From: a virus
Taxonomy: Duplodnaviria > Heunggongvirae > Uroviricota > Caudoviricetes
Virus record (IMG/VR): IMGVR_UViG_2675903433_000022
Length of the DNA: 64,000 bases
Reading direction: 5' to 3' (one strand)
The position numbers were made by a program, and so were the translations under genes. The notes beneath the pieces are model-generated. The model was not told the DNA's origin and ran no database searches. It saw nothing but the letters and a program-made list of their open reading frames with translations. Positions 39,997 through 53,433 of this stretch are shown here, piece by piece; positions within the stretch are counted from its first letter, which is position 1, and each line of letters begins with the position of its first letter.

Positions 39997-40001
39997 CAAT
40001 T

Positions 40002-40026
40002 AGGCGACTTCTGTCGCCTTTTTTGT
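40002..40026 (+). terminator. rho-independent terminator
   Basis: AGGCGAC-ttct-GTCGCCT followed by TTTTTTG. Confidence 0.65.
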
Positions 40027-40172
40027 TAACAGCCATTGATTCTCGCCTAAAAATTCTAAGGCAGCACCTACCATTTAACCTTTACACAGCAGCCGTAGGC
40101 ATTTAGGCTATATCACATATAAGAAAACAAGTTGTTTCAGACAATAATAATAGACGCAAAGGGAACTCTCCA

Positions 40173-40841
40173 ATGACCAAGATCTTTGTGGTTGGCGGCA
40201 CAAAGGGCGGGCCTGGCAAATCCACTGTTGCCCAGCAAATTGCCGTTTGCCTGAAAGTCAAAAAGAAGAAGAAGGTTTATATCACTGATATAGATATTCA
40301 GCGCACGACAACAAGCTGGTGTGAAGACCGTCGACAGAACGAAGACCTTGAGCTGATTCCTTTTGCCTACGTTCAGGATGACATCATTAAGCACCTAAAA
40401 TCGCTTCAGGGTAGAGCTGAGTTTGTAGTGGTAGATGCTGGTGGCTTTGACTCCGAAATTCAGCGACAAGCGATGCTGATGGCCGACGTTATCATTATCC
40501 CGCTGCGTCCTAAGCGTCGTGATTTGAAATCTCTGCGTGACATCGATCCTATTATCGACAATGTTCGTAATGTAAACGATAAAGTGAAGGTCCGCGCGGT
40601 CATGAACCAGTGCCCGGCTTTGCCATCACAAGTGTCTCGCATTCTGGCGGCTAAAGAGATTGTCGAGACGTTTGGCATCGAGTCTGCGCCAGTCAATCTA
40701 TATAACCGCAACGTCTACGATGATGCGGAAGAGTCTGGTCGTTCTATCTTCGAAATGACCGGTAGCGAGCGCGACAAAAAGGCTGAAGCCGAGTTTGAAG
40801 AATTTGTAGATTATCTGTTGAGTCTGGAGGAAGAAGAATAA
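40173..40841 (+). CDS. parA: ParA-family partition ATPase (small, type Ib-like)
   Basis: Deviant Walker A GGTKGGPGKST at N-terminus; 222 aa. Confidence 0.75.
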   Translation: MTKIFVVGGTKGGPGKSTVAQQIAVCLKVKKKKKVYITDIDIQRTTTSWCEDRRQNEDLELIPFAYVQDDIIKHLKSLQGRAEFVVVDAGGFDSEIQRQAMLMADVIIIPLRPKRRDLKSLRDIDPIIDNVRNVNDKVKVRAVMNQCPALPSQVSRILAAKEIVETFGIESAPVNLYNRNVYDDAEESGRSIFEMTGSERDKKAEAEFEEFVDYLLSLEEEE

Positions 40842-41200
40842 TGTCCATGAAAATGGGTGACCTAGCAAAGCGCAAAGAGCCTGATGCACCGGCTAAGAAC
40901 ACAACTCCTTTGCGCCAACCAGTCAGACCACAGGGACGCCCGACTCGTGGCAAAGAGAAAATTAAGAGCCGCACGATGTCACTGGAGGACGAATACTTCG
41001 AACTGCTGGAGATGATGAAGTTCATCCCTCGTTTCGAGAAATTCACCCGTTCAGACGTGATTCGCGCAGCCATTTTCCATCTGGCAGAGAAGTCACCGCA
41101 GGAAATCGAGGACATCGTGAAACTTAACGAGGCGATCACAGCTGCCGATGTCACGATGCGTACCGATGAAATCAAACGAGAGTTGATGAAAAAAGGTTAA
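40841..41200 (+). CDS. small partition partner protein (ParG/ParB-like)
   Basis: 119 aa, overlaps parA stop; basic disordered N-terminus. Confidence 0.45.
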   Translation: MSMKMGDLAKRKEPDAPAKNTTPLRQPVRPQGRPTRGKEKIKSRTMSLEDEYFELLEMMKFIPRFEKFTRSDVIRAAIFHLAEKSPQEIEDIVKLNEAITAADVTMRTDEIKRELMKKG

Positions 41201-41252
41201 AAATCATGCATTGGCGCAATGTACGCGCCAATGCATAACTACAGTGTCAGCT

Positions 41253-42020
41253 TTATGCCGCGCTAACACTATGTTCAGTCCTAACCACCCCAACCTTCAC
41301 AAAAGGGCTACCGTAGCTTGGTGGCTTCTTGATTAATTTGCCTACATACAGTTTTCTAATATGCTCATCGGCTATTCTGCCAACAAATTCATAACGTTTT
41401 GTGTCGGGGCCAAGAGCTATATCCCTTGTAAAGTACTGCTGAGAACCGGCTTTGACCCAGCATTCAATCCGATAAACTTCCATTATCAGCCCACCATATG
41501 TAGCGTAGGCATATTTGAGATTCTCGTCTCTTGGAACCTTTGCCCATACGCCACGCGTAGCTTCATATAATGCCAGAGCGGACATTCCTGACTTGTAGGT
41601 GCTGTTTAGCAGGAAGGCAAGACCGGCGTGCTCAGGAGCAATTTCAGTTTCCTCTTGCAGCACTAAGTGATGGTAGGCGTCCAGTGATATTCTGCCCATC
41701 ATGGAACCACTTCCTCGTACCTTATTCGTAAGCTCTCCGACCCCCATAAGGTCGATGCATGTCGCCTCAACAAGTTTGGCTGTGGTTTCATCCATACCAT
41801 GACGAAGTATATCTATGCCTAATTTTTTATTAGCCAAAAGTTCTTTGATCCGCATGGATTTGGGAGAGTCATCGGGATACTTGATGTGATCGAGACAACG
41901 AGTCGATTTGCCTTTTCCTATGTAAAACGGTCTTTTCATCTTGTCTTCTGTATCATAGAGACAGTAAACATAGTATTTAGCCTTATCCAATGATCTCGCG
42001 TATACCGATAAATCGTCCAT
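41253..42020 (-). CDS. GIY-YIG nuclease domain protein with uncharacterised C-terminal domain
   Basis: N-terminal YYVYCLYD ... PFYIGKGKSTRCLDH (GIY-YIG-like); about 170-aa C-terminal region unknown. Confidence 0.5.
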   Translation of the reverse strand: MDDLSVYARSLDKAKYYVYCLYDTEDKMKRPFYIGKGKSTRCLDHIKYPDDSPKSMRIKELLANKKLGIDILRHGMDETTAKLVEATCIDLMGVGELTNKVRGSGSMMGRISLDAYHHLVLQEETEIAPEHAGLAFLLNSTYKSGMSALALYEATRGVWAKVPRDENLKYAYATYGGLIMEVYRIECWVKAGSQQYFTRDIALGPDTKRYEFVGRIADEHIRKLYVGKLIKKPPSYGSPFVKVGVVRTEHSVSAA

Positions 42021-42131
42021 TATTGCATCTCTTAGCTACTGACTAATGCGTTCTATTTTACACATAAGTTTTTAATCAATTTAACAGGCTCAAAGTGTAG
42101 AGCTTCTGGGCGTCTAAGACGACAAGTTATG

Positions 42132-42186
42132 CCTGCTTCCGTATATATAAATAATAAGTAACTTATTAAATATATACAGAAGCAGG
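42132..42186. repeat. 55-bp near-perfect palindrome, copy 2
   Basis: Reverse complement of the element at 9084..9138. Confidence 0.8.
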
Positions 42187-42269
42187 TCTTTTAAAAGACA
42201 CCACCAGAACAACTCCCTTCCGTTTCCACTTCCAAAAACTGCCACCAGTCGCTATCATCCGCTCATTGT

Positions 42270-42290
42270 GATAAGTAAGTAACTACCTAC
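42270..42290. promoter_or_regulatory. motif site GATAAGTAAGTAACTACCTAC
   Basis: Just upstream of replication-module gene 42294..43043; near-identical to site at 37182. Confidence 0.4.
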
Positions 42291-42293
42291 CAG

Positions 42294-43043
42294 GTGAGCC
42301 ACATGAGCCAAATCTTTTTCGATACCATCGACAACGACCAGTACGACTTCATGACAGAGTGGAATACCGCTGTTATGGACAAGTGGGTCGCTGAAAACAT
42401 TGGTTTGTCGCGCTGTAAAGACGAGGCTGAACTCTTCGAGACGAAGTGGTTTGATTATCGCGACATGCATCCTCTCATGGCCACCTGTCTTTTTACGGAG
42501 GCATACAAACGTCAGTACTCAAATATCATGCTGACGCACGGTCGCGAACACTTTGAAACAGCTCCGTTCACCACCGGGTTAAAACGCCTGCCTTATCAGG
42601 AGTTGTCGACTGCCAATAAAACGTCGCTATGGAAAGCACGCCAGTTTGCTGACCGCTATTGCTGCTCATACGACTACTTTATCTCCACCGTTCTTTCCGC
42701 AGCTGCACGACGACTGTGGGACAAGCTGCCGCGTCCGCAGCATTTGTGGCAGCCAGAACTGATTGAGATATTCGAAGATAAATTAGCCAGACGCGCAACA
42801 ACCCGTCTGGATGACTCTCTGGTTAGCTTTAAGCATATGGGAGACATGCAGTTCAACCCGATTCAGGAAAGCTATTTTGAGTGGATTCTTGAGCGTTTAC
42901 GCGCCATCCCCCGCAGCAAGCGCATACGCGCAATTTTCTCCGCTATCTGGCTAATGGAAATCGTTCCAGAGCGCCTTATTTCCGCCCACTTTCCAGAAGA
43001 ACTGGAAGAAGCACGGCGGTTTATTGATCCCCTATCTAATTAA
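42294..43043 (+). CDS. hypothetical protein (249 aa), first gene of replication module
   Basis: ORF track; positional. Confidence 0.45.
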   Translation: MSHMSQIFFDTIDNDQYDFMTEWNTAVMDKWVAENIGLSRCKDEAELFETKWFDYRDMHPLMATCLFTEAYKRQYSNIMLTHGREHFETAPFTTGLKRLPYQELSTANKTSLWKARQFADRYCCSYDYFISTVLSAAARRLWDKLPRPQHLWQPELIEIFEDKLARRATTRLDDSLVSFKHMGDMQFNPIQESYFEWILERLRAIPRSKRIRAIFSAIWLMEIVPERLISAHFPEELEEARRFIDPLSN

Positions 43044-43086
43044 CTAATACTAGAAAACAATTTGTTTAAAAAACAAAGGAAAGCAC

Positions 43087-44427
43087 ATGACCGAACTTTG
43101 CCATACAGGACGCGGGCTGTCCGAAGAGTTTGATGAAGATTTCCAGAACAGACTGACGGCATATTTTTGTCGTGATCACGAGTTTCTTACTCGTGCGGGA
43201 GATCTGGTTGTGCCTAGCCAATTTGCCAATGCGGCCAATGCCATATTGGTTAATATGGTTTCGGGCTATTACCGTATGTACAAGAGCGCGCCCTCTTCAT
43301 CTGCAATTCTGGATATGCTTAAGCGTGCGAAACGCGATAAGACTATCCGTGAGGAACTATTCGCCGATGTTGTTGCTGCGTTTAAGCGCATCCTTGCAGA
43401 AAAATTGTCCGATACCTCGTACATGGTTGACCAGGTATCAACCTTCGCAAAAAGCGTAGCGTTTGATGATGCTCTGATTAAGGCTGCTGAACTGAAAGAG
43501 AAAGGCGACTTTCAGGGGGCGATGGCAATCATGGCCAAGGTTCAGCAGATTGGATCGAACGAAGCGACCGGAATCTATGACTACTACACCTCCGCAAGTG
43601 AGCGATTGAAAGCGCGTGAATATGAGGCTTCAGAGGAGTATGTGCCAAACAGCATTACAACTGGACTCCCTCTGCTCGATAGGTTGCTGTACCAAAAAGG
43701 CTGGGCGAAGCGTGAAATGGTGCTCTTCATGGGGTTCGCTAAATCCGGTAAATCGACCGCAATGGGTGAATTTTCCATAAACGCAACGCTTGCTGGCTAC
43801 AATGTTCTGTATCTCTCGCTGGAGGTTCACACCACCATTTTATCCGACCGTTTTGATGCAAGATTGTCGGAGACAGAAATGTCCAAGCTGGTGGAACGGC
43901 GCGATGAGGTTCATCGTAAGTTGGCAGAGTTGGGAGCCACGAAGGGGATTGGTAGTTTGTGGGTGGTTGAGCGTCCGTCAGGAAGTATGTCACCGGCAGA
44001 TCTGGACCGTATGCTTAACAGCATGAAAGCCAACGGCATGGTGCCTGACATGGTTGTTGTCGACTACGCAGATTTGATGCGTGCCAGTTATGACCTTCGT
44101 GATGATCGCGCCAACATTCGTAGTATCTACACCGATTTGCGCGCTCTTTATGACAAGCATAACGTTGCTGGTATCACGGCATCGCAGACAAACCGTGAAG
44201 GTGGCGCGTCAGAAGTTGCCACAATGATGCACGCTGCCGACAACATCGAAAAAGTACGTATTGCTGACCTGGTAATAACGATCAACAAAACCGAAGAAGA
44301 AGAAGCGAAAGGAGAGGCTCGTCTCTACTTTGCTGGTTCACGTAACCAGCAGGGAGGGATCAGCATTCGCGTTAAACAAAACCTCGAACAAATGCGCTTC
44401 ATTGAGCGAATCTTAGACGTTACCTAA
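43087..44427 (+). CDS. DnaB-like replicative helicase
   Basis: Walker A GFAKSGKST in C-terminal RecA-like domain; 446 aa. Confidence 0.7.
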   Translation: MTELCHTGRGLSEEFDEDFQNRLTAYFCRDHEFLTRAGDLVVPSQFANAANAILVNMVSGYYRMYKSAPSSSAILDMLKRAKRDKTIREELFADVVAAFKRILAEKLSDTSYMVDQVSTFAKSVAFDDALIKAAELKEKGDFQGAMAIMAKVQQIGSNEATGIYDYYTSASERLKAREYEASEEYVPNSITTGLPLLDRLLYQKGWAKREMVLFMGFAKSGKSTAMGEFSINATLAGYNVLYLSLEVHTTILSDRFDARLSETEMSKLVERRDEVHRKLAELGATKGIGSLWVVERPSGSMSPADLDRMLNSMKANGMVPDMVVVDYADLMRASYDLRDDRANIRSIYTDLRALYDKHNVAGITASQTNREGGASEVATMMHAADNIEKVRIADLVITINKTEEEEAKGEARLYFAGSRNQQGGISIRVKQNLEQMRFIERILDVT

Positions 44428-44436
44428 AAAATAAGC

Positions 44437-45690
44437 GTGGAGAACACCTCCACGCTTGATTCATTGGTGAAACAACTTTTCTTTTGCCAAACCACAAAAG
44501 AAAAACACATGAGCCTTTATGTTATATCAACATTTAGGTTGGTCACAATATTGCCTGTTAAAAGTGGAATTATCGTGAGCGAGCTGAAAGAGCTAATTAC
44601 CGAATTAGATTTTGAACAATGGTTGGACACTGAAGGTATCGTTTATCGACGTGGAGGCGTGAGTGCTCGCGGTCGTGAAGTGAATATCAAGGAGTGTCCG
44701 GTATGCGGCAGCTCCAACTGGAAGGTATATTTCAATCTGACCAGTGGTGTCGGCAAATGCTTCGCTGGTGATCATCCCGAAGAGATTCAGTTTAATAAGC
44801 TGGTCTTCCTCAAGCACTACAGCGGTAAATCACGACGACAGTTCGAGGAATATGTGCAGAACGCTCTTCTTTCCCAGGGGTGGGCACCAAAGAAAGAAGA
44901 GATAGTGCTTGCAAGCACAGTCGAGTTAGAGGGACCACTTGCACTCCCTCGTCATTACGAACTTCCTATAGATGGCCGTCTTCCAGACTATCTGGTTGAA
45001 CGAAACATATCGCCTGAAATGGCAAAGTATTTTGACCTACGATACTGCGTCGAAGGCAAGCACGCTTATGTAGATCCGTATACAGATCAGGTTAAAGGAC
45101 AGATATTCGATATGCGAATACTGATACCGGTTTACGATCTGGATGGGGTAATGAAGACATTTCAGGGACGAGACATTACCGGTACAGCAGAACGCCGCTA
45201 CCTCTTTCCTATGCAGCTTCCAGCTTCAGGTAAGTTTCTCTACAACGGCCATAATGCGGTCGGCAAACAGACTGTAGTTGTCTGTGAGGGGGCATTCGAT
45301 GTTATGGGGGTTAAACGAGCTATTTTTGATGAAGAAACATTACGTGATTACGTGGAACCAATAGGAACGTTCGGGATGCATCTATCTGGTAACACCACTC
45401 AGGATGCAGAAGATCAGTTAGGCGCGTTCCTGACGCTCAAGGCGCGTGGGTTACGTAATGTGATCATGATGTGGGATAGTGAAAAGCAAGCTATACGCAA
45501 CACTATGGCCGCAGCCAGGCGACTGACCAGTATCGGTCTTAATGTCAAAGTGGCGTGTTTGGGCGAGGAAGGACTCGACCCGGGCGATGCAACGCCAGAG
45601 CAAATCATCAAAGCCTATTATCGGGCAAAACCGTATACCAAGCAGTTGGAGTTACAAAGCAAGGTTTTGGGCATTAAGGCTCTATCATAA
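44437..45690 (+). CDS. DNA primase (zinc-ribbon plus TOPRIM-like)
   Basis: CPVCGSS ... C zinc-ribbon-like; acidic motifs; directly after helicase; true start may be downstream of 44437. Confidence 0.6.
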   Translation: MENTSTLDSLVKQLFFCQTTKEKHMSLYVISTFRLVTILPVKSGIIVSELKELITELDFEQWLDTEGIVYRRGGVSARGREVNIKECPVCGSSNWKVYFNLTSGVGKCFAGDHPEEIQFNKLVFLKHYSGKSRRQFEEYVQNALLSQGWAPKKEEIVLASTVELEGPLALPRHYELPIDGRLPDYLVERNISPEMAKYFDLRYCVEGKHAYVDPYTDQVKGQIFDMRILIPVYDLDGVMKTFQGRDITGTAERRYLFPMQLPASGKFLYNGHNAVGKQTVVVCEGAFDVMGVKRAIFDEETLRDYVEPIGTFGMHLSGNTTQDAEDQLGAFLTLKARGLRNVIMMWDSEKQAIRNTMAAARRLTSIGLNVKVACLGEEGLDPGDATPEQIIKAYYRAKPYTKQLELQSKVLGIKALS

Positions 45691-45704
45691 CAATCACCTT
45701 TAAA

Positions 45705-45724
45705 ATAAGTAGATGATTACTTAT
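45705..45724. promoter_or_regulatory. palindromic motif site ATAAGTAGATGATTACTTAT
   Basis: Upstream of gene 45766. Confidence 0.4.
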
Positions 45725-45765
45725 CTTTCTGTGAGAATACTTTCATCTGTTAGCTAGGAGTTGGT

Positions 45766-46548
45766 ATGAAAGACGAAATTCAGAAATTAGCCTGCGACAT
45801 CATTGATAAAACTGGTTTAGAAATCAGCGAGAGCAATCGGCTAGACATCATTGAAAAAGCCGTAAAAACAGCAATGGATCATATCGCCACTCGTTTGGTC
45901 GAGATCCCGCTACCGGGGCTACCTTATCTGAAGGTTAAGTTACACGTATGGGGTGAACCTTCTTGTGCACGGCGTTCTGCATTAGTTGTTTTTATTAGCA
46001 AAGAAAACCCGATCAGTCTTAAAGTGCAGGTTGGGGCATGGATGGATGGCAAAGTGATCTACACAAATACCGTTTTTTGTGCGTCAAATGACAGTATTAT
46101 TGAAGAGGCTATTCAAGAATCACTTCTAACTATGCATAGCTTAGTTTTGCTGGAAGACAAGCAAAACTACGAAGAGTACTTACGGTCGATAAAAGGTGAG
46201 AGAACATTGTCACTTAAAGCCGATTTCGTTACCCCGACAAACCTGTTGGAAGTCTTGCTTAATAAAGGGGCTAATGATGCCGTAAATGTAATCAGAGAGA
46301 GTGAGTATGCGTCTCTTTGCGACATGTGCAAAAGCCAGTTGGATCTGGTGCATATCGTTATTGATGCTGGGAAGGCATGTGATGGCGTAATGGCGGAATT
46401 TGCTGGGAAGATGGTCAGGATTGCTAACGAATTACCGATGATAGAGCAAGAGGCTAAATCATACGCCACCAATCATGTCACAGAGCTTCTTGTCCCCTAT
46501 CGCTTAGAAAGCAATCAGCGCAAGATGATTAGCTGGGGAAGTTGGTAA
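45766..46548 (+). CDS. hypothetical protein (260 aa)
   Basis: ORF track. Confidence 0.45.
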   Translation: MKDEIQKLACDIIDKTGLEISESNRLDIIEKAVKTAMDHIATRLVEIPLPGLPYLKVKLHVWGEPSCARRSALVVFISKENPISLKVQVGAWMDGKVIYTNTVFCASNDSIIEEAIQESLLTMHSLVLLEDKQNYEEYLRSIKGERTLSLKADFVTPTNLLEVLLNKGANDAVNVIRESEYASLCDMCKSQLDLVHIVIDAGKACDGVMAEFAGKMVRIANELPMIEQEAKSYATNHVTELLVPYRLESNQRKMISWGSW

Positions 46549-46582
46549 TCTCTCCGCGCGTCGTTTTTTTTACGCAAACAAT

Positions 46583-46595
46583 GATAGGTAAGTAC
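46583..46595. promoter_or_regulatory. motif site GATAGGTAAGTAC
   Basis: Upstream of gene 46606. Confidence 0.3.
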
Positions 46596-46605
46596 AAGAT
46601 TATTT

Positions 46606-47088
46606 ATGGCGATAGTTGTGAAAGCTGATTTGTCAAAAATCCCCTCTATTTCAGGAAATAATGGTTATTCACTTCGTTGTGAGGAAGTAAAGATAAACGG
46701 TGAGTCGGCATATTGCAGTTACTCCGTTTGCCAGCACACCATTCTTGCCTTCAAAGAAAGCCGTCTTCCTCGAACTTCTTTCCAGTCGTGCGCAACCGCT
46801 ATTAAAGCAGGCAAATGCAAGGCGTTAAAAATGATGGTTGAAGAGATTCGTAAAGGAGAATCTCTGTATTTCGAAGATATGACCGCACTCATTAAGGAGG
46901 TTGAAGAACGGAATAAACAAGCCAGAACTATAAAACGAAAACGTGACAGTGTAACGATTAATAGCATGGTTAAGAAGAGCGCCACATCACAAACAGCGAT
47001 CACTGACGTGTATGCGGCGTTGCTTGAAGAAACAACAAAAGAAACACATGAGCAAATCGATCAACATATGGAGGCAAAACAACAATGA
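46606..47088 (+). CDS. hypothetical protein (160 aa)
   Basis: ORF track. Confidence 0.4.
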   Translation: MAIVVKADLSKIPSISGNNGYSLRCEEVKINGESAYCSYSVCQHTILAFKESRLPRTSFQSCATAIKAGKCKALKMMVEEIRKGESLYFEDMTALIKEVEERNKQARTIKRKRDSVTINSMVKKSATSQTAITDVYAALLEETTKETHEQIDQHMEAKQQ

Positions 47089-48407
47089 AAAAGTTGATCG
47101 CACTTAAGCATAAGCTGGACGAAATGAAAGCTATGGGAACCAATGCAAAAAAAGAGGCATTGGCCAACATGGATGACTTTGAACAAAGCATGGTTTCATT
47201 GATGCTCAACCCTTTCATCCGTTTTGGGGTAAAGAAATACAAAGTGGCAGAGCCGCTTAGTGAGTCCGTCCTAAGTGACGAAAAAGCCATTGATGTACTG
47301 AATAAGCTGGCCTCTCGCGAGCTGACGGGGAGCGCAGCAATAGTTGCTGTTGAGTCTATCGTGGCGTCAATGTGCGCCGATGGGCAGGACGTCTTCCGTC
47401 GTTTCCTCTTAAAAGATCCGAAAGCTGGCGTTGGGATTAGCCTATGTAACAAGGTTTTTGAAAATCCCATTCCGAAATTCGAGGTGCAGCTGGCGTCACC
47501 GTATAAAGAAAAAGGCGACAAATACCCCTTCAAGCCAAATCCTAAAGCCAAATGGCCGATGATTGGCAGCCTTAAGCTCGATGGTTTGCGAGTAATTTGT
47601 GAGGTTATTGTTGACGAGGAAGAGGTTAACTTCCTTTCTCGTACTGGTAATCCAATCACGTCTCTCGATCACCTAAAGCCAGCCATGCTCGAATTAGGCA
47701 AACTTTCAGGCCACAAACACATCTTCTTCGATGGTGAAGGAACAGCCGGTTCATTTAACCAGTCCATATCTGCATTGCGCAAAAAGAACGTGCAGGCAAT
47801 TGGCGCTATTTATCATGTTTTCGACTTCTTCCTACCGGAATGGCGAGCACAGGCTAAATCCAAAGAGTATGCAAAGACAGGTATGAAGCTGAAAGAGCGC
47901 CTGGCTATGCTGGTGGCGTTGTTCAAAAACGATCGCAGTGAAGGCTACACACAAGACATTCACCTGCATCCGTTCTATATCATCCATAGCCACGAAGACT
48001 TCATCGAACGCTTCATGAAACGCCTGGACGATAACGAAGAAGGGGAGATGGGCAAAGATCCGAACTCTGTTTACGAGTTTAAACGTACCCGCAGCTGGTG
48101 GAAGTTAAAAGACGAAGATTCAGAAGATGGTGAAATTATCGACTTTGAGCCGGGCGACCCGGACTCTGGTTTTGCCAACACACTTGGAAAAATTGTTATT
48201 CGTCTTGAAAACGGCGTCATCGTTCGTGCGAGCGGCATTAAGCATAAATATCTGGACGAGATCTGGAACAACAAAGAGAAGTACCGTGGTCGTATTGTCG
48301 AGGTTCATTGTCACGAGAAAACACCGGACGGCAGCTTACGCCACCCACGACTGAAATGGCCGCGTTGCTTACGCGATACAGAAGATCGAATCGGAGATAA
48401 AGAATGA
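47085..48407 (+). CDS. ATP-dependent DNA ligase
   Basis: Adenylation motif I KLDGLR (KxDG) and downstream nucleotidyltransferase-like motifs; 440 aa. Confidence 0.75.
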   Translation: MKKLIALKHKLDEMKAMGTNAKKEALANMDDFEQSMVSLMLNPFIRFGVKKYKVAEPLSESVLSDEKAIDVLNKLASRELTGSAAIVAVESIVASMCADGQDVFRRFLLKDPKAGVGISLCNKVFENPIPKFEVQLASPYKEKGDKYPFKPNPKAKWPMIGSLKLDGLRVICEVIVDEEEVNFLSRTGNPITSLDHLKPAMLELGKLSGHKHIFFDGEGTAGSFNQSISALRKKNVQAIGAIYHVFDFFLPEWRAQAKSKEYAKTGMKLKERLAMLVALFKNDRSEGYTQDIHLHPFYIIHSHEDFIERFMKRLDDNEEGEMGKDPNSVYEFKRTRSWWKLKDEDSEDGEIIDFEPGDPDSGFANTLGKIVIRLENGVIVRASGIKHKYLDEIWNNKEKYRGRIVEVHCHEKTPDGSLRHPRLKWPRCLRDTEDRIGDKE

Positions 48408-48583
48408 TGCTCGGCTGGATGATTGCATTTTTAGCGGTTGGTTTTTTAATCGGTATTGTGGTGATGTCCAGTTGCATCAATGACTACATTAAAAGCGGTG
48501 TTATAGAACGACGCGGTCGTATTTATCGCATTGTAGAAATAACCCACACAGTGAAGGAGATTAAGGATGATCGTATTAAGTAA
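48404..48583 (+). CDS. small membrane protein (59 aa), not in ORF track
   Basis: ATG overlapping ligase stop; TM LGWMIAFLAVGFLIGIVVM then RGRIYRIVEITHTVK. Confidence 0.4.
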   Translation: MMLGWMIAFLAVGFLIGIVVMSSCINDYIKSGVIERRGRIYRIVEITHTVKEIKDDRIK

Positions 48584-48782
48584 GCGGGAGAAGGAAACGC
48601 TTCATGAAATCAGTAAGTGGCCGGAGTTCCCTGAGTACTGGAAGCCTAAAACGCGAGCTAAGTTAGAGCGTTTAGGGTTGGTTGCAAACGTTTCTGAAAC
48701 GAAGTGTTCGGCCAACTACCAGTTAACTGATAAAGGGAAAGTATTGCTACAGCAATTAGTAGAATCAGGAGTGTTAAAATGA
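48567..48782 (+). CDS. hypothetical small protein (71 aa)
   Basis: ORF track; overlaps neighbours. Confidence 0.35.
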   Translation: MIVLSKREKETLHEISKWPEFPEYWKPKTRAKLERLGLVANVSETKCSANYQLTDKGKVLLQQLVESGVLK

Positions 48783-48931
48783 TTCCATACATCTCATTAG
48801 CTTTTATGGGTGGCTTCCTTATTGGCTTCGGCATCTGTCGTGATTTAATTAAGCAGGAACTTAAAACCAAAACACTGTGCATCGGAAAGCGTGTGTATCG
48901 GGTAGTTCATGAAACAAAGGTTAGAAAATGA
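48779..48931 (+). CDS. small membrane protein (50 aa), paralogue-like of 48404..48583
   Basis: ATGA overlap with previous stop; TM ISLAFMGGFLIGFGI then GKRVYRVVHETKV, matching the motif of the 59-aa protein. Confidence 0.4.
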   Translation: MIPYISLAFMGGFLIGFGICRDLIKQELKTKTLCIGKRVYRVVHETKVRK

Positions 48932-49218
48932 TCAATTTAACTTCTTGGAACTGGTGGTTGGCCACCTATTTCTTAGCGGCCGGAGTCGCATTCGCCTTTT
49001 ACGTAGGTCAGTTAGTCGTAAAACTGTTGCTGATTAAATTTGCTAGTCATAAACGTATCGATGATGGTCTGTGGCGTCTTGGCACCTTGGTGGAAACTCG
49101 CTACGGGCAACTTAAGGAGAACGAAACCATTACTATCCAAGCGAAACGATTCACTGCCACCATCACAAGAACACCTAGTCGTAGAGTGGCCTTGATCAAA
49201 AAAGTTACAACCGAATAA
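48928..49218 (+). CDS. membrane protein (96 aa)
   Basis: N-terminal TM WWLATYFLAAGVAFAFYV; ATGA overlap with previous gene. Confidence 0.4.
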   Translation: MINLTSWNWWLATYFLAAGVAFAFYVGQLVVKLLLIKFASHKRIDDGLWRLGTLVETRYGQLKENETITIQAKRFTATITRTPSRRVALIKKVTTE

Positions 49219-49226
49219 AAATACAA

Positions 49227-49250
49227 TGATAAGTATTTACTTACTTATCA
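49227..49250. promoter_or_regulatory. palindromic motif site TGATAAGTATTTACTTACTTATCA
   Basis: Strongly palindromic; at start of the 780-bp non-coding region before the tRNAs. Confidence 0.4.
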
Positions 49251-49608
49251 TTTATGTATAAGATGACTTTGTTTTCGTTGAGACGCGACTGTTTGAACTT
49301 AAATACAAGTGCAAACGAAGAAGTCTATCTGGCAGTAGCCTAATAAGCCAAACACCAGCGAGGTCAGTTTCCAGCCTCGTTACCGAAATGGGACACACTG
49401 AGCGAGTGTGATTGCAGAACGCAGGAGGGAACATTCATGTTCCCTCCGATGAAGTAACAGAATGGGCGGTTGGTATATTTTCAACTCCATATGACTCCCG
49501 GATTCTTAGCCACTGACCGCCCATCCTGTTACGTCATTTTGTTCAATTATGTCGTTTATACTGGGTTAAAAAGCGGCGACGTAGCCCGGCTGGTATGGTT
49601 AGCCAGCA

Positions 49609-49730
49609 CACAACGTTGAGGCCATTACATTTTTATCAATTCTAAGGTTCTATTCACAGAGATACCGGCGAGCGTTGATATGTAACATGTTGGGCAAACA
49701 TTCAATCGGAGTAGTGGCCTCAACGTTGTG
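49609..49730. repeat. 16-bp perfect inverted repeat pair (CACAACGTTGAGGCCA / TGGCCTCAACGTTGTG) with about 90-bp spacer
   Basis: Arms at 49609..49624 and 49715..49730; arm sequence related to the pair at 50464..50541. Confidence 0.6.
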
Positions 49731-49997
49731 AAGACAGGATTGTTGTGTAGGTTTAACCACTGTTGCCATTGGTGCCTGTTTTCACAACAAATGATTCCAT
49801 ACATCACATTGTATAAATTATAAAGTAGGTGCTGCCCTCAGAAACATCATCTACTTAAAGATTTTGCCTTCTACTATTGAGCGAAGTCGAAAGCGTCTGG
49901 CACTAACGGAAAGTGCAAGTAGCGGTGCGTTTCCTGGCAGAAACTAACACCGCCGCGATTGGCACTGTTGAGTAATAAATACAGGCAGTGCTGAATT

Positions 49998-50072
49998 GAT
50001 GGTGTAGCTCAGCGGTAGAGCAGTTGGCTGTTAACCAACTGGTCGGTGGTTCGAATCCACCCACCATCGCCA
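49998..50072 (+). tRNA. tRNA-Asn (anticodon GTT)
   Basis: Cloverleaf folded by hand: acceptor GATGGTG/CACCATC, D-stem GCTC/GAGC, anticodon loop CTGTTAA, T-loop GGTGG-TTCGAAT-CCACC, then G-CCA. Confidence 0.75.
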
Positions 50073-50074
50073 AT

Positions 50075-50150
50075 GCCGGTTTAGCTCAGTTGGTAGAGCA
50101 CCTGCCTTGTAAGCAGGATGTCAGCGGTTCGAGTCCGTTAACCGGCACCA
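50075..50150 (+). tRNA. tRNA-Thr (anticodon TGT)
   Basis: Acceptor GCCGGTT/AACCGGC, D-arm GCTC-AGTTGGTA-GAGC, anticodon loop CTTGTAA, T-arm AGCGG-TTCGAGT-CCGTT, A-CCA. Confidence 0.75.
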
Positions 50151-50374
50151 ATACAACGATAAGATCATTACGGTTAATCGTCGTTCATGTGCACAATGAC
50201 TGGTCGAAAGGTAGTGATCTTACCGTTGTGGTGGATTCGCAGACTGATGCGATAGCTTTCTTGGATGTTAGGGAAATGCGGCCGCAAATCTTCCCTTTCG
50301 CGAGCGGTGATCGTCCGTAGTCCTAATTGGCTGCACCGTATGCCGGAGATTCAGTACCGGCCACCACAACGGCC

Positions 50375-50461
50375 GGAGAGTAGGGAGCATGGTGCTCAAG
50401 CGGTCTTGAAAACCGTCCCATTGCGCAAGCGATGATGGTTCGATTCCATTACTCTCCGCCA
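50375..50461 (+). tRNA. putative type II tRNA-Ser (anticodon TGA), atypical
   Basis: Acceptor GGAGAGT/ACTCTCC, anticodon stem-loop GCGGT-CTTGAAA-ACCGT, long variable arm, T-arm GATGG-TTCGATT-CCATT, G-CCA; position 8 is A rather than U and D-stem is only 3 bp. Confidence 0.45.
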
Positions 50462-50463
50462 GA

Positions 50464-50541
50464 CACAGCGTTGAGCGGTTTGGCCTTTTAATCAACTCGA
50501 TTAAGACTCCGCTAACATAAACCAGACCGCTCAACGCTGTG
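50464..50541. repeat. 20-bp inverted repeat pair (CACAGCGTTGAGCGGTTTGG / rc) directly after tRNA-Ser
   Basis: Arms at 50464..50483 and 50522..50541, 19 of 20 matching; arms resemble the 49609/49715 pair (CACA[AG]CGTTGAG). Confidence 0.55.
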
Positions 50542-50615
50542 ATAGACAATTACGGCAGACGTTCTTAACCATAGCTTGCTAACATCCTAGCAACACTTTT
50601 TTCAGCGCAAAATTC

Positions 50616-50639
50616 AAAGGGGCTTCGGCCCCTTTTTTG
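50616..50639 (+). terminator. rho-independent terminator
   Basis: AAAGGGGC-ttcg-GCCCCTTTTTTG. Confidence 0.75.
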
Positions 50640-50681
50640 CAACTGAAAGAGTCAAGTCTACGAACTTTGTAGGAAGAAATA

Positions 50682-51032
50682 ATGACCAGCAAAGAGAACA
50701 CACCACTAAAAGTCACCTCTGAACACATTGAACAACTCATTCAAAGTGAACATTATTTCACTGCATATGATGCCAGCCACGGGGATAACTTCATCTCTGT
50801 TTACAATTCAAAAACAGATATCGACAACGGTCATGAGTCGTTAAAACTCTTAACGTTCTGCGTTATGATTCTCAAAAATGGATATACCGTAACGGGAAAA
50901 TCTGCGTGCGTAAGACCAGAAATCTTCAACTTTGATGTTGGTCGCGAGTACGCTCGAAAAGATGCTATCGATCAAATCTGGCCCCTGGAAGGCTATCTCC
51001 TGAAGCAAAAGTGGCATGAGGCAAAGCAATGA
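50682..51032 (+). CDS. hypothetical protein (116 aa)
   Basis: ORF track. Confidence 0.45.
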   Translation: MTSKENTPLKVTSEHIEQLIQSEHYFTAYDASHGDNFISVYNSKTDIDNGHESLKLLTFCVMILKNGYTVTGKSACVRPEIFNFDVGREYARKDAIDQIWPLEGYLLKQKWHEAKQ

Positions 51033-51274
51033 CGATCACTATCTACGGACGAGATAACTGCTCATACTGCAAACGTGCGGTCGAGCTGGCGAAGCAACTA
51101 AAGGGACATGGCTACGGTGATTATGAGTACATCGACATCACCACTGCCGGTATCGACAAGAAAAAACTAAGTGAAATTGTTGGTAAACCGGTAGAGACTA
51201 TCCCCCAGGTACTGATCGATGGCCAACCGATTGGCGGATACACTGAACTGGCTGCATACGTCAGCACCCTCTGA
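51029..51274 (+). CDS. glutaredoxin/NrdH-like redoxin
   Basis: CSYC active-site motif near N-terminus; 81 aa; ATGA overlap with upstream gene. Confidence 0.6.
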   Translation: MTITIYGRDNCSYCKRAVELAKQLKGHGYGDYEYIDITTAGIDKKKLSEIVGKPVETIPQVLIDGQPIGGYTELAAYVSTL

Positions 51275-51280
51275 TTTTAA

Positions 51281-51303
51281 CGGCTCACAGGAGCCGTTTT
51301 TCT
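51281..51303 (+). terminator. rho-independent terminator
   Basis: CGGCTC-acag-GAGCCG followed by TTTTTCTT. Confidence 0.6.
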
Positions 51304-51484
51304 TCCCACCAAACTCACTCCCGTTTCCCTTAAAATTCAAAAAACAACGTCAAAATGATTCCATACCTACTATGTATGGAATCATTACTGAAAATGAGTT
51401 ACTTTTACTCTTGATCCTATAAGAATCTATGCCTAATATACTGTTTACTTATACAGTGCATCGGCGTAACTCGGTGATTGTCAT

Positions 51485-52588
51485 ATGAAAAATAGCTTTG
51501 ACAGAGCACGCGCTGCGGAGAACACCTCAAAAGAGGCGATTGAGTATCTCGAAAGAGCATCTCAAATGCAGGCCGTTATGATCTCGCAGGTTAGCAATGA
51601 CATGAGATTCTCGGACGCATTCATGTTATTCACTCGCTTATCTCTGCTGATAACCAGACGTCGGCCAGAGATCGCTGTTCATTGTATTTTGATACATGTT
51701 TTGCCGCACATTGCCGATGTAAAAGTAAGTGATATTAATAGGTTCATGGTGAACCAACTGGTCAACCCACTAATACTGGATGGCAAAATTGTTATGGGCC
51801 GCCGCGTTTTCTCTCTGATGAAGCAGTTCCTTAGCTGGTGCGCCTTCCAGGGGATGATCGACGTGTCACCGTTAAACGATATGTCACTTAACAAAGTTGC
51901 CGGTGGCGCAAAGCCCACACCTCGCGAGCGGAAGCTAACCGACGCAGAGGTATGGGTGTTCTGGAATATATGGGACTACTTCAATGTGTGTGCTGGTACA
52001 AAATGGGCGGCCAGGCTATGTCTTGTATCCGCAAGACGACCTGACGAAGTACTGCGGGCTAAAAAAAGTGAGTTCAATCTTAAGCGTGGGGTTTGGAATC
52101 AAGGCAAGAGGAACAAATCTGCCCGTGAGCATTCTCTGCCTTTAAGCTCATTAATGCGCACATGTATTGAAGAGTTGTTCGAATATGGTAAAGACAGCCA
52201 GTGGCTCGTGCCTTCGAATAAAAAAATCGGGAAAGACCTTCCTATGTCTAAAGTGGCAATAGCCCAGGCATTACGTCGTATTCTGGAACGACCAGAACTG
52301 ATGGAGCTTGAGCCATTTACACCCCGAGATTTGCGCCGTACTGCGCGTAGTTACTTCCCAGCATTAGGCATAAGCCAGGAGGTATCACGTAAAATCATGA
52401 ACCACAGTCTTGAGGGGATAGATCGGGTCTACGACCGGCACGATTATATGGACGAGATGCGAGACGCCTTAGAAAGTTTCTCGACGTACATCGCATCAAT
52501 CGTAGAGCAACCGGATTTAGACGAAATTGACCACAAATTTAAGGGAGATCGTCTATCAACAGAGCTTATTCGTGTAAATTTTTCATAG
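51485..52588 (+). CDS. int: tyrosine recombinase / integrase
   Basis: C-terminal catalytic residues in RDLRRTARS ... HSLEGIDRVYDRHDY context (R, H, R, Y). Confidence 0.75.
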   Translation: MKNSFDRARAAENTSKEAIEYLERASQMQAVMISQVSNDMRFSDAFMLFTRLSLLITRRRPEIAVHCILIHVLPHIADVKVSDINRFMVNQLVNPLILDGKIVMGRRVFSLMKQFLSWCAFQGMIDVSPLNDMSLNKVAGGAKPTPRERKLTDAEVWVFWNIWDYFNVCAGTKWAARLCLVSARRPDEVLRAKKSEFNLKRGVWNQGKRNKSAREHSLPLSSLMRTCIEELFEYGKDSQWLVPSNKKIGKDLPMSKVAIAQALRRILERPELMELEPFTPRDLRRTARSYFPALGISQEVSRKIMNHSLEGIDRVYDRHDYMDEMRDALESFSTYIASIVEQPDLDEIDHKFKGDRLSTELIRVNFS

Positions 52589-52969
52589 AGACTTTATGGC
52601 CTCAACAACCTTTTGTGATGCGCCTTTCTCTTTACCGAATCGCTCGTTATATGCAGCAAGAACCTGTTTTTCGTCCTCGTTAAGAGGAGCAGTGCCTTCT
52701 TTGTATAAAAATGCTGCGAGCTCGGGTTGGCGTTCTTCCAGCACCATCATCATAAGACGACTTGGCTCAATACCCAGTGCCAGCGCCAGCGGACGAACCT
52801 TATCGATAGGCAAAGGAATTTTGCCGCTTTTAATTAAAGAAAGGTTGTTGGCGTTTTTATACCCAATTGTTTTGGCTATCTGGGCCTGGCTCATAGGTGA
52901 GGATTCAATCAACCCTGCGATAAAAGCAGCGTAGCGACTTTCTATAAATTCAATCTTGTTATCAGACAT
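52583..52969 (-). CDS. XRE-family HTH transcriptional repressor (cI-like)
   Basis: HTH MSQAQIAKTIGYKNANNLSLIKSG; divergent from small gene at 53221. Confidence 0.65.
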   Translation of the reverse strand: MSDNKIEFIESRYAAFIAGLIESSPMSQAQIAKTIGYKNANNLSLIKSGKIPLPIDKVRPLALALGIEPSRLMMMVLEERQPELAAFLYKEGTAPLNEDEKQVLAAYNERFGKEKGASQKVVEAIKSL

Positions 52970-53000
52970 GGTTACAACCTTTGCGCGTTCAATTCTCTCT

Positions 53001-53014
53001 GGTAAGTGCTTACC
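53001..53014. promoter_or_regulatory. palindrome GGTAAGTGCTTACC in repressor divergent region (candidate operator)
   Basis: Located 32 bp upstream of repressor start; shares GTAAGT/ACTTAC arms with the recurrent motif. Confidence 0.4.
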
Positions 53015-53220
53015 GATATTACATCAAAGGTTAGGGTTGTAAAGCTATTATCATTTTTTTCGATAGGCACTTAAAAGACCGGTTAAAGGCCATTGCACGG
53101 AGAAAAATTAGCCCAAAACAGGTAAGAAAATTAACTTGCATGTGATATGAATGTATTCAGTATTGATACAAATTTTAGTAGTATTCCTTACCATAGTATA
53201 AGTTAGAATGGATTGATTGA

Positions 53221-53433
53221 ATGAACACCACTATTTCCAGCCTAATCGCTCTTGAGATCGGACACGTACAGAAATTAGCTGATGAGTGTGTAGCTGACAT
53301 CCTCACCGATCTACCGAATGAGCAGATTCAGGTTGGTGTGAATGACACAACTGGTTTTATATTCGAACTTAACAACAAACGCTTCACGCTTCTCAATACC
53401 GGCTCCGGGTCTTTAGCCGTCAGAATCTGTTAA
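53221..53433 (+). CDS. small protein divergent from repressor (Cro-position)
   Basis: Position only. Confidence 0.3.
   Translation: MNTTISSLIALEIGHVQKLADECVADILTDLPNEQIQVGVNDTTGFIFELNNKRFTLLNTGSGSLAVRIC

Follow-up and report, generated by a model that had tools for sequence, protein, structure and literature searches.

In the phage-plasmid P1, the tyrosine recombinase Cre acts at lox, and its known role is the resolution of multimers (PMC7969092; PMC10250229). In Tn4430, the site IRS has a symmetric IR1-IR2 core, and accessory motifs on one side of it impose resolution selectivity; a core in reversed orientation still works (PMC2847244). Phage-plasmids are defined by the field as typically lacking integrases (PMC12977533). 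Here, we analyse a tyrosine recombinase gene and its surroundings in a stretch of 64,000 nucleotides from a virus of the Caudoviricetes (IMG/VR record IMGVR_UViG_2675903433_000022); in the following, this whole stretch is called the window. A first-pass annotation, made from the sequence alone, had suggested a phage-plasmid lifestyle in which this recombinase might act as a dimer resolvase rather than as an integrase. We find that the recombinase and a palindrome upstream of its gene probably form a multimer-resolution module similar to Cre/lox or TnpI/IRS. Both catalysis at this site and a biological role in resolution are what we infer from the comparison of genomes.

The family to which the window belongs has been described before. 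The published classification places its E. coli members in the pSLy3 group of the SSU5 supergroup (PMC7969092; PMC11652158; PMC12977533). One of the relatives is phage Cyrano, which is identical with plasmid pLF82, is present at 5.5 copies per cell, forms siphovirus particles and yields virions upon induction with ciprofloxacin (PMC9928086; PMC2941450). Positions 40000–53000 of the window have 98% identity over 90–99% of their length to Cyrano (OV696614), to ‘phage CMS-2020a’ and to 167 plasmids (BLAST; plasmids covering at least 80% of the region were counted). These plasmids have sizes of about 105–115 kb and come from E. coli, E. albertii and Shigella, and three phage records match the 13-kb region. 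As the whole region is 98% identical in 167 plasmids and three phage records, its gene arrangement is not due to chance. The phage-plasmid reading of the first-pass annotation is thus correct, given the identity to Cyrano/pLF82, to the plasmids and to SSU5, and by this comparison the window is part of a pSLy3-group phage-plasmid of E. coli. What is new here are the probable target and role of the recombinase; the rest largely describes a known family. The element would persist as a low-copy circular plasmid, a state that is read from the records of its relatives and not from the window itself, and the region analysed would hold two self-contained maintenance cassettes, one for partition and one for multimer resolution.

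A palindromic site accompanies the recombinase gene

The recombinase gene is located at 51485..52588 on the plus strand. The candidate recombination core lies 98 bp upstream of its ATG (51354..51386, no strand assigned) and is a perfect 13-7-13 palindrome, AATGATTCCATAC-CTACTAT-GTATGGAATCATT. We observed a palindrome of the same design 50–130 bp upstream of the gene in 11 of the 12 homologue loci examined, down to 47% identity. The exception is a K. variicola locus (L013), where the palindrome is found about 225 bp upstream of the recombinase and has two arm mismatches. Several relatives combine the same arms with other spacers, which are CTATTAA in pMT1 and Kluyvera, TTAATAG in Buttiauxella, TTGGTAG in Klebsiella and CTATAGA in K. 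quasipneumoniae, where the recombinase is 59% identical. The homologues with 47–48% identity are encoded on Pantoea and Rahnella plasmids of 143–555 kb. Here, the arms are altered at two positions, symmetrically and in both arms (TGACTCCAGAC/GTCTGGAGTCA). Phage or XRE genes are absent from the flanks examined of these homologues, and the neighbours on the Pantoea plasmids are siderophore-receptor genes and pagP.

Scanning IMG/VR with a degenerate pattern of the site resulted in at least 120 loci. The recombinase gene is located 42–102 bp downstream of the site in 113 of the 120 loci listed, and six of the seven others end too close to the site to tell. Among the matches listed, only two arm types occur, which are always symmetric and each confined to one protein clade: arm TGATTCCATAC is found with proteins that are at least 57% identical to the recombinase of the window, and arm TGACTCCAGAC with proteins that are at most 49% identical. 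The spacer is found in at least 20 versions and in two orientations. This pattern would be expected for the core of a tyrosine recombinase, with sequence-specific arms and a spacer that only needs to match that of its partner. Spacer flips were also considered as evidence of recombinase action, and this argument was withdrawn because a terminator palindrome of the partition cassette (41206–41236, see below) has its loop in both orientations, AATGTAC and GTACATT, in different genomes (loci L135–L214). Since the terminator palindrome flips too, loop inversion is a general mutation of palindromes and not a sign of recombinase action. A complete site of the Pantoea type was additionally found at 5271–5299 of locus L131, with the spacer CTCGTGA and an accessory-like motif (described next) at its left.

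The two sides of the core differ in their history. We compared 122 site contexts, oriented by the recombinase gene, and found that the left flanks fall into 51 unrelated groups, whereas the right flanks stay homologous. Directly left of the core, at 51330..51353 (plus strand), lies a semi-conserved A/T-rich accessory element that recurs across the 51 left-flank contexts and has the consensus tcAGAtTTcAAaAAAncGCcCtTnAA. The information content is at background left of position -27 and rises from -26 to -1 to this loose consensus. Even among genomes with recombinases that are 99–100% identical, seven or more unrelated left flanks are found, and in each of them the accessory motif has a version of its own that reaches up to the arm. 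Most simply, this pattern would be explained by recombination between two complete sites that cross over within the core. The accessory element is loosely arm-like (GATTYCAWA; 7–8 of 11 positions). As a third recombinase-binding motif it is a weak candidate, as it does not follow the arms where these change in the Pantoea clade.

Cargo turns over at the hypervariable left flank. In the window, the slot left of the palindrome comprises 51244–51335, and Cyrano has an insertion of about 0.8 kb with the gene CYRAN_43 directly left of the palindrome (L001 13854–14741). CYRAN_43 is reportedly the most highly expressed Cyrano gene in lysogeny, at 723 times background (PMC9928086). In other relatives, this slot is occupied by PhoH, an Ail/Lom outer-membrane protein or a YafO toxin.

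The variation of the left flank might point to a wider role. The recombinase and the extended site could be a docking point where related phage-plasmids, plasmids or circles recombine if they have a cognate site, for example the orphan site of L131, with the left side as the main entry for cargo, the 7-bp spacers as barcodes that limit exchange, and single-arm copies as decayed or regulatory secondary sites. We regard this as unlikely; if it were true, the cargo entering left of the site would include toxins, outer-membrane proteins and possibly resistance genes. We give even less credit to a main role in the capture or exchange of cargo, in which, similar to integrons or pdif, circles or co-resident replicons with a cognate site would diversify the gene set on the left. 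Such a role would explain why 51 unrelated left contexts each come with their own accessory motif, why the cargo between tRNA-Asn and the site differs among relatives (CYRAN_43, PhoH, Ail/Lom, YafO) and why a complete orphan site exists in L131, and isolated arm copies could then be decayed sites. Against this role, no locus or plasmid with a cassette flanked by two full sites was found; the 252 E. coli plasmids have a single site in each record, as does each viral locus. Furthermore, no arm copy lies at the left edge of the variable region, and the exchange is equally expected as a by-product of a resolvase that acts on two co-resident relatives.

The recombinase lacks an arm-binding domain

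The recombinase has 367 amino acids (aa) and consists of a core-binding and a catalytic domain, without an arm-binding domain, as judged from Pfam and an AlphaFold2 (AF2) model. It matches PF00589 (E 3e-10) and the integrase family phrog_1 (E 5e-47). The catalytic residues R185, K211, R284, H307 and Y316 are conserved, with R281 at the His-I position. In the AF2 model (pLDDT 86), the N-terminus is all-helical (residues 1–60). The best Foldseek matches, at probability 1.0, are lambda Int in full length (1z1b, 5j0n) and as residues 75–356 (1z19, 1p7d), Tn1549 Int, Xer, IntI and Cre. Among these, the Cre structures (E ~0.02, 9–13% identity) rank behind lambda Int (E 7e-7), Tn1549 Int and Xer. A phmmer search of the recombinase against the Protein Data Bank (PDB) resulted in no match at E≤1, Cre included.

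The recombinase belongs to a clade of proteins with at least 44% identity and 340–380 aa that contain PF22022 and PF00589. We found no match to the arm-binding domain PF13356 (DUF4102) in the recombinase or in any listed member of the clade. The next relatives outside the clade, at 34% identity or less, are P4-type (CP4-57-like) integrases. They share the central domain PF22022 and the catalytic domain PF00589 with the clade; unlike the clade, which is plasmid-only in E. coli, they have an N-terminal PF13356 and a length of 400–464 aa. From the domain content and the structure match, it follows that a simple two-domain recombinase has arisen within an integrase family.

With tblastn, the recombinase was detected in 981 plasmid records from Klebsiella, Escherichia, Enterobacter, Pantoea, Yersinia, Salmonella and other genera. 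About 1,000 plasmid records label it ‘site-specific integrase’. The protein identity is 86% for Yersinia pMT1 and 84.5% for Salmonella plasmids of 106.7 kb, which is about the size of pHCM2 (106.5 kb). The resemblance to pHCM2-type elements, which the first-pass annotation had based on gene content, is thereby supported.

The recombinase is confined to plasmids in E. coli

The segment from the recombinase to the XRE gene occurs in 252 of 5,426 complete E. coli genomes, at 254 places that are all on plasmids and none on a chromosome. When the E. coli genomes were searched with a 49-bp query on the candidate site (blastn, E≤10), we obtained 504 plasmid matches and no chromosomal match. Because this query matched only plasmids, E. 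coli chromosomes lack an attB-like copy of about 20 nt or more. A resolvase rather than an integrase, as proposed in the first-pass annotation, is thus the best-supported role, based on the lack of chromosomal copies, the lox-like palindrome that travels with the gene, the missing arm-binding domain and the homologues on megaplasmids without a phage gene in the flanks examined.

These data also make it improbable that we are looking at a true integrase, with the palindrome as the core of attP and an element that alternates between a plasmid and an integrated state in some hosts or conditions. All annotations call the protein a site-specific integrase, the closest of its distant relatives are P4-type integrases, and an att site beside the integrase gene is the usual layout in phages. 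The orphan site without a recombinase in L131 and a few orthologue-bearing contigs of 0.2–1 Mb outside the inspected set would be in line with integration as well. On the other hand, the two arms show perfect symmetry and we saw no arm-type repeats in the neighbourhood, which sets the site apart from a complex attP, and an excisionase gene was not identified beside the recombinase. In addition to the missing chromosomal copies and the missing arm-binding domain, homologues on megaplasmids lie between siderophore-receptor genes and pagP, which is not in favour of an integrase.

Comparison with Cre/loxP and TnpI/IRS

When comparing the module to Cre/loxP of P1, we find that both belong to phage-plasmids, that both have a single simple tyrosine recombinase without an arm-binding domain, and that both sites consist of two 13-bp inverted arms around a short asymmetric spacer (PMC7969092; PMC10250229). 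Unlike Cre/loxP, the present module has a P4-type ancestry, a spacer of 7 instead of 8 bp and an additional conserved flank on one side, and there is no detectable sequence relation between the two recombinases. Palindromes beside Cre-type recombinase genes were true targets in 8 of 17 experimental tests (PMC10250229). The screen behind these tests would have missed the present system because Cre homology and an 8-bp spacer were required. The site is similar to the IRS of Tn4430 in its symmetric core motifs, its short asymmetric spacer and the accessory DNA on one side only, and the tolerance of Tn4430 to a reversed core parallels the two spacer orientations seen here. It differs in that the accessory motifs of Tn4430 are clear copies of the core motif that are bound by TnpI, and in that TnpI resolves transposition cointegrates and not plasmid dimers.

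By analogy with these systems, each of the two identical 13-bp arms would be bound by one recombinase monomer. In a plasmid dimer, where the site is present twice in direct repeat, four monomers would then exchange strands within the 7-bp asymmetric spacer. The dimer would return to monomers, and ParA would therefore have separate units to segregate. Indirect support for this mechanism comes from the single site in each of the 252 E. coli plasmid records, from the homology breakpoints at the core and from a search for Xer sites that gave nothing better than chance. The one-sided A/T-rich element may favour intramolecular resolution. Since the site is located just upstream of the promoter-like region of the recombinase gene, binding of the recombinase may also autoregulate the gene.

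Several observations weigh against a resolution module. Recombinase activity is assumed, given that the protein descends from P4-type integrases and has an arginine at the His-I position. A perfect palindrome beside a promoter-like region could be only an operator or a hairpin, and an ordinary terminator palindrome shows the same loop flipping. The isolated arm copies described below (48778, 49790, 57405 and one in the recombinase gene) have no role in a simple resolution model. For the orphan site of L131, no recombinase homologue was found within 5 kb on either side, and a recombinase acting in trans might use it. Chromosomes were tested in E. coli, where matches shorter than about 20 nt would escape detection, and a few contigs of 0.2–1 Mb outside the inspected set carry an orthologue. 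In the literature library searched, we found no relevant work or experiment on the site sequence or on the recombinase of SSU5/pMT1.

The possibility of an operator or hairpin deserves to be spelled out. The palindrome would then be only regulatory, as an autoregulatory operator or a hairpin in RNA or DNA, and the recombinase would act elsewhere or be a relic. The location just upstream of a -35-like TTGATC before the recombinase gene would agree with this, and symmetric changes in the arms would keep a hairpin as well. Nevertheless, we consider a purely regulatory palindrome improbable. The arm is fixed at 11 of 11 bases across lineages in which the proteins are only 59% identical and the flanks cannot be aligned, whereas true terminators in similar places have nothing in common from one context to the next. 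The core is precisely where the homology between genomes breaks off, with 51 left contexts, and an asymmetric 7-bp spacer between 13-bp arms is the geometry of a tyrosine-recombinase core. Furthermore, the catalytic residues are under conservation. Two other candidates were rejected: the palindrome is not an operator of the XRE repressor, as it follows the recombinase into Pantoea and Rahnella plasmids that have no XRE neighbour, and a XerCD site similar to cer or dif is not an alternative resolution system, as the best match in our search had 5 mismatches in 22 positions, equal to shuffled sequence.

If the resolvase reading is true, the contradiction between an integrase and a phage-plasmid is removed and the annotation is corrected. 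The resolvase could then offer a defined maintenance function as a target for destabilising these plasmids. In clinical E. coli, Klebsiella, Salmonella and Yersinia, phage-plasmids of the SSU5 supergroup are frequent; some of these elements bear resistance genes, and one of the plasmids closest to the window carries blaCMY-2. With its 7-bp spacer, P4-type ancestry and two natural arm specificities, the pair of recombinase and site is also a candidate for an orthogonal recombinase/target system.

Isolated copies of the arm

In addition to the full site, the window contains isolated copies of a single arm. Three of these are exact 13-bp copies. The first (48778..48790, plus strand) is located at the start codon of a 50-aa open reading frame (ORF) and is extended to AAATGATTCCATACATCTCAT. 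The second (49790..49802, plus strand) is non-coding and lies about 200 bp upstream of tRNA-Asn, and the third (57405..57417, minus strand) is inside a DnaE-like polymerase gene. A further copy with one mismatch lies inside the recombinase gene (52091..52101, minus strand). All copies lie in an interval of 8.6 kb that includes the recombinase gene, and three overlap with coding sequence. After each copy, ATC(T/A)CAT-like bases follow. Elsewhere in Cyrano, over the remaining 50 kb, the only arm copy is that in the polymerase gene. The copy at 49790 is exact in Klebsiella and Citrobacter relatives; in SSU5, which has no recombinase, it has one mismatch in the 11-mer and two in the 13-mer. The isolated copies are candidates for secondary binding sites, for relics or for coincidences with coding sequence.

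The copies at 48778 and 57405–57417 share 20 nt in inverted orientation. Inversion between them, similar to a shufflon of the Rci/sfx type, was therefore considered and rejected, as the expected junction occurs in 0 of 194 plasmid records.

A probable partition cassette with a ParF-like ATPase

The partition system to which we compare the window is ParF/ParG/parH of TP228, in which ParG is a small partner with a flexible N-terminal tail and a ribbon-helix-helix (RHH) fold. The first-pass annotation had described a small ParA with a 119-aa partner at 40173–41200 as a type Ib-like partition locus, and both ORFs were found at this position.

ParA (40173..40841, plus strand) is a small ATPase of 222 aa that we assign to type Ib, ParF-like, based on matches to Pfam, PHROG and the PDB. 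Its deviant Walker A motif, K11-GGPG-K16-ST, starts at residue 11, and there is no N-terminal extension. It matches MipZ, AAA_31 and CbiA in Pfam as well as phrog_164, ‘ParA-like partition protein’ (E 4e-51), and the best solved relatives are ParF/ParA of TP228 (4dzz, 5u1g), aligned over residues 9–199 with E 1.2e-10. The score for NF041546 is 116 bits, which is under the cut-off of 180. For the ATPase, the type Ib-like assignment thus holds in size, deviant Walker A motif, lack of an N-terminal DNA-binding domain and ParF as best PDB match.

The partner (40841..41200, plus strand; 119 aa) is a candidate centromere-binding protein because of its adjacency to ParA and a remote RHH similarity. 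Its start overlaps the last base of the parA stop codon by one base, and it directly follows parA in 78 of 80 related loci; the remaining two are truncated. The protein has a conserved MGDLAKR N-terminus, a disordered basic tail (residues 1–45) and an RHH-like segment at about residues 43–82, which is followed by two more helices. The AF2 model (pLDDT 67) has helices at residues 48–59, 70–82, 86–97 and 101–118. The family is tiny, with 20 cluster representatives among 1.84 billion in a profile search of the full library. One family member (P0147) matches RHH_1 at E 0.005. One of the representatives, the remote relative P0159, scores above the Pfam cut-offs of RHH_8 and RHH_1 in the segment that aligns, with a probability of 92% in hhalign, and a weak match to aCcr1, an RHH protein, was obtained as well. 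By this indirect route, the partner may contain an RHH-like DNA-binding segment. In Cyrano, the genes orthologous to the partner and to the gene after it are both listed with an expression above the prophage background (PMC9928086).

Upstream of parA, we detected a conserved cis block (40058..40172, plus strand) that would comprise promoter, operator and candidate centromere. It contains a promoter-like TTTACA-17-TAGGCT, the tandem 8-mers TAGGCATT/TAGGCTAT and the small palindromes TATAT-CAC-ATATA and AAACAA-G-TTGTTT. About 110 bp before parA are near-invariant across 49 distinct upstream sequences, whereas farther in the 5' direction the lineages have unrelated DNA. Over the 100 bp before parA, the identity is 87–93% (88–98% for positions -100 to -51) in comparisons where synonymous third positions of parA are only 50–63% identical. 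As the upstream block is far more conserved than synonymous sites, a cis-acting element is strongly supported. The surroundings of the cassette vary, with at least eight upstream and 34 downstream contexts.

The end of the cassette is probably marked by a terminator, a perfect 12-7-12 palindrome between the convergent partner and GIY-YIG genes (ATGCATTGGCGC-AATGTAC-GCGCCAATGCAT; 41206..41236, no strand assigned). Other lineages have different hairpins at its place. The nuclease gene of the GIY-YIG (LEM-3-like) family (41253–42020, minus strand) is inserted between the partition cassette and an AT-rich palindrome; Cyrano and SSU5 have other genes at this position, which makes it another variable slot. 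The AT-rich palindrome (42132–42186) is near-perfect and 55 bp long, CCTGCTTCCGTATATAT...ATATATACAGAAGCAGG, followed by TCTTTT, and lies upstream of a 249-aa ORF and dnaB. Different lineages conserve it, and in some genomes it comes right after the partner gene. This palindrome may act in termination or as an origin of replication, or it may be a second centromere-like site.

If the cassette works as ParF/ParG/parH of TP228 does, the block upstream of parA would serve the partner as centromere and operator in one, and sister plasmids would be separated by ParA upon stimulation by the partner. The locus shares with TP228 the small ParA without an N-terminal DNA-binding extension, a small partner with a flexible N-terminal tail and the conserved cis region directly upstream of the operon. 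The partner exceeds that of TP228 in length (119 aa) and by two additional C-terminal helices, it belongs to a tiny family, and no short-repeat array was recognised. A function like that of a type Ib system is therefore suggested for the ATPase by its sequence, with the partner fold and the centromere at the level of candidates.

Three points speak against this function. In the partition cassette, we found no repeat array that would be typical of a centromere, only two tandem 8-mers and two small palindromes. For the partner fold, Foldseek on the AF2 model, the PDB profile search and Pfam scans of all family members were all empty. Outside the window, Cyrano encodes a second ParA/MinD-like ATPase, CYRAN_99, with 366 aa beside a LexA-like S24 peptidase (L134 44738–45838; Cyrano 45–95 kb). 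It is conceivable, though unlikely, that the plasmid relies on another locus such as CYRAN_99 for its segregation, and that the small ParA and its partner do not serve in partition but are regulatory or have another role. The distance of about 30 kb between the small parA and RepA (CYRAN_63) would be in line with this, as would the missing iterated repeats near parA and a tiny partner family whose fold was left unconfirmed by direct searches. This explanation has to account for a ParF-like ATPase with an intact deviant Walker A motif, for a gene pair that is fixed and translationally coupled in 78 of 80 loci and for an upstream block that is far more constrained than synonymous sites. Moreover, the boundaries of the cassette are kept while both flanks vary, and there is indirect RHH evidence for the partner. 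We thus prefer partition as the function of the pair.

Comparison with Cyrano and SSU5

The replisome genes for a DnaB-like helicase, a primase and an ATP-dependent ligase (43087..48407, plus strand; Pfam) are located between the partition and resolution cassettes. The set of own-replisome genes listed in the first-pass annotation is confirmed by Pfam matches to DnaB_C, primase/Toprim, ATP-dependent ligase, DNA_pol3_alpha and a single-stranded DNA-binding protein of the gp32 type. Cyrano has the same order of parA, partner, dnaB, primase, ligase, tRNAs, glutaredoxin, recombinase, XRE and CobT at 98% identity over 90% of the region. It differs from the window, apart from the CYRAN_43 insertion, in the gene after the partner and in the absence of the window positions 50157–50374, between tRNA-Thr and tRNA-Ser. 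Large ORFs occupy 9–36 kb of the window, and the genes annotated in Cyrano for tail fibre and lysis correspond to about 33–39 kb of the window by coordinate offset.

The resemblance to SSU5, which the first-pass annotation had also pointed out, is confirmed by BLAST except for one block. SSU5 (NC_018843) is 80.6% identical to the window at 40.06–49.74 kb, which comprises parA to tRNA-Asn (about 80% identity), and has the same replisome and CobT/DnaE genes. In contrast, the whole block 50074–53433 of the window is missing from SSU5 (locus L003 14602–14663). This block contains tRNA-Thr, tRNA-Ser, a gp49-like gene, glutaredoxin, the palindromic site, the recombinase, the XRE gene and a 70-aa ORF. 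The homology to SSU5 ends at the last base of tRNA-Asn and restarts just before the CobT-like gene. As SSU5 misses it, the recombinase-repressor block is a trait of relatives of the pLF82/pHCM2/pMT1 type and not of SSU5 proper. One paper calls SSU5 virulent (PMC5427195), and virulence as worded there would fit the loss of the XRE regulator.

Transfer RNA genes and the XRE regulator

The tRNAs, the tyrosine recombinase and the XRE regulator are all found where the first-pass annotation had placed them, at 50.0–53.0 kb. The tRNA genes, tRNA-Asn(GTT), tRNA-Thr(TGT) and tRNA-Ser(TGA), are complete cargo genes (49998..50461, plus strand; ARAGORN and Rfam). The tRNA-Asn/Thr(/Ser) cluster is 91–94% identical to that of P1/P7/D6, which suggests that it has been exchanged between unrelated phage-plasmid families. 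We also considered the tRNA genes as attachment sites and rejected this, as they are complete genes common to P1/P7/D6, and the deletion in SSU5 has its border precisely at the 3' end of tRNA-Asn.

The XRE regulator of the helix-turn-helix type (52583..52969, minus strand; 128 aa) is a putative lysogeny repressor, based on matches to phrog_8 (E 1e-11) and, weakly, HTH_19. Its gene is convergent with the recombinase gene, overlaps the 3' end of the latter by 6 bp and is absent from SSU5. Its orthologue in Cyrano, CYRAN_45, carries the annotation ‘putative repressor’, and the expression listed for it is 10-fold above the prophage background (PMC9928086).

Lastly, an Rfam scan of 39.5–53.6 kb found the three tRNAs and nothing else, including for 49219–49997, a stretch of 780 bp without a convincing ORF. 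This stretch contains several long hairpins with related stems, for instance CACAACGTTGAGGCC.../...GGCCTCAACGTTGTG at 49609–49730, and a similar hairpin is found at 50464–50541.

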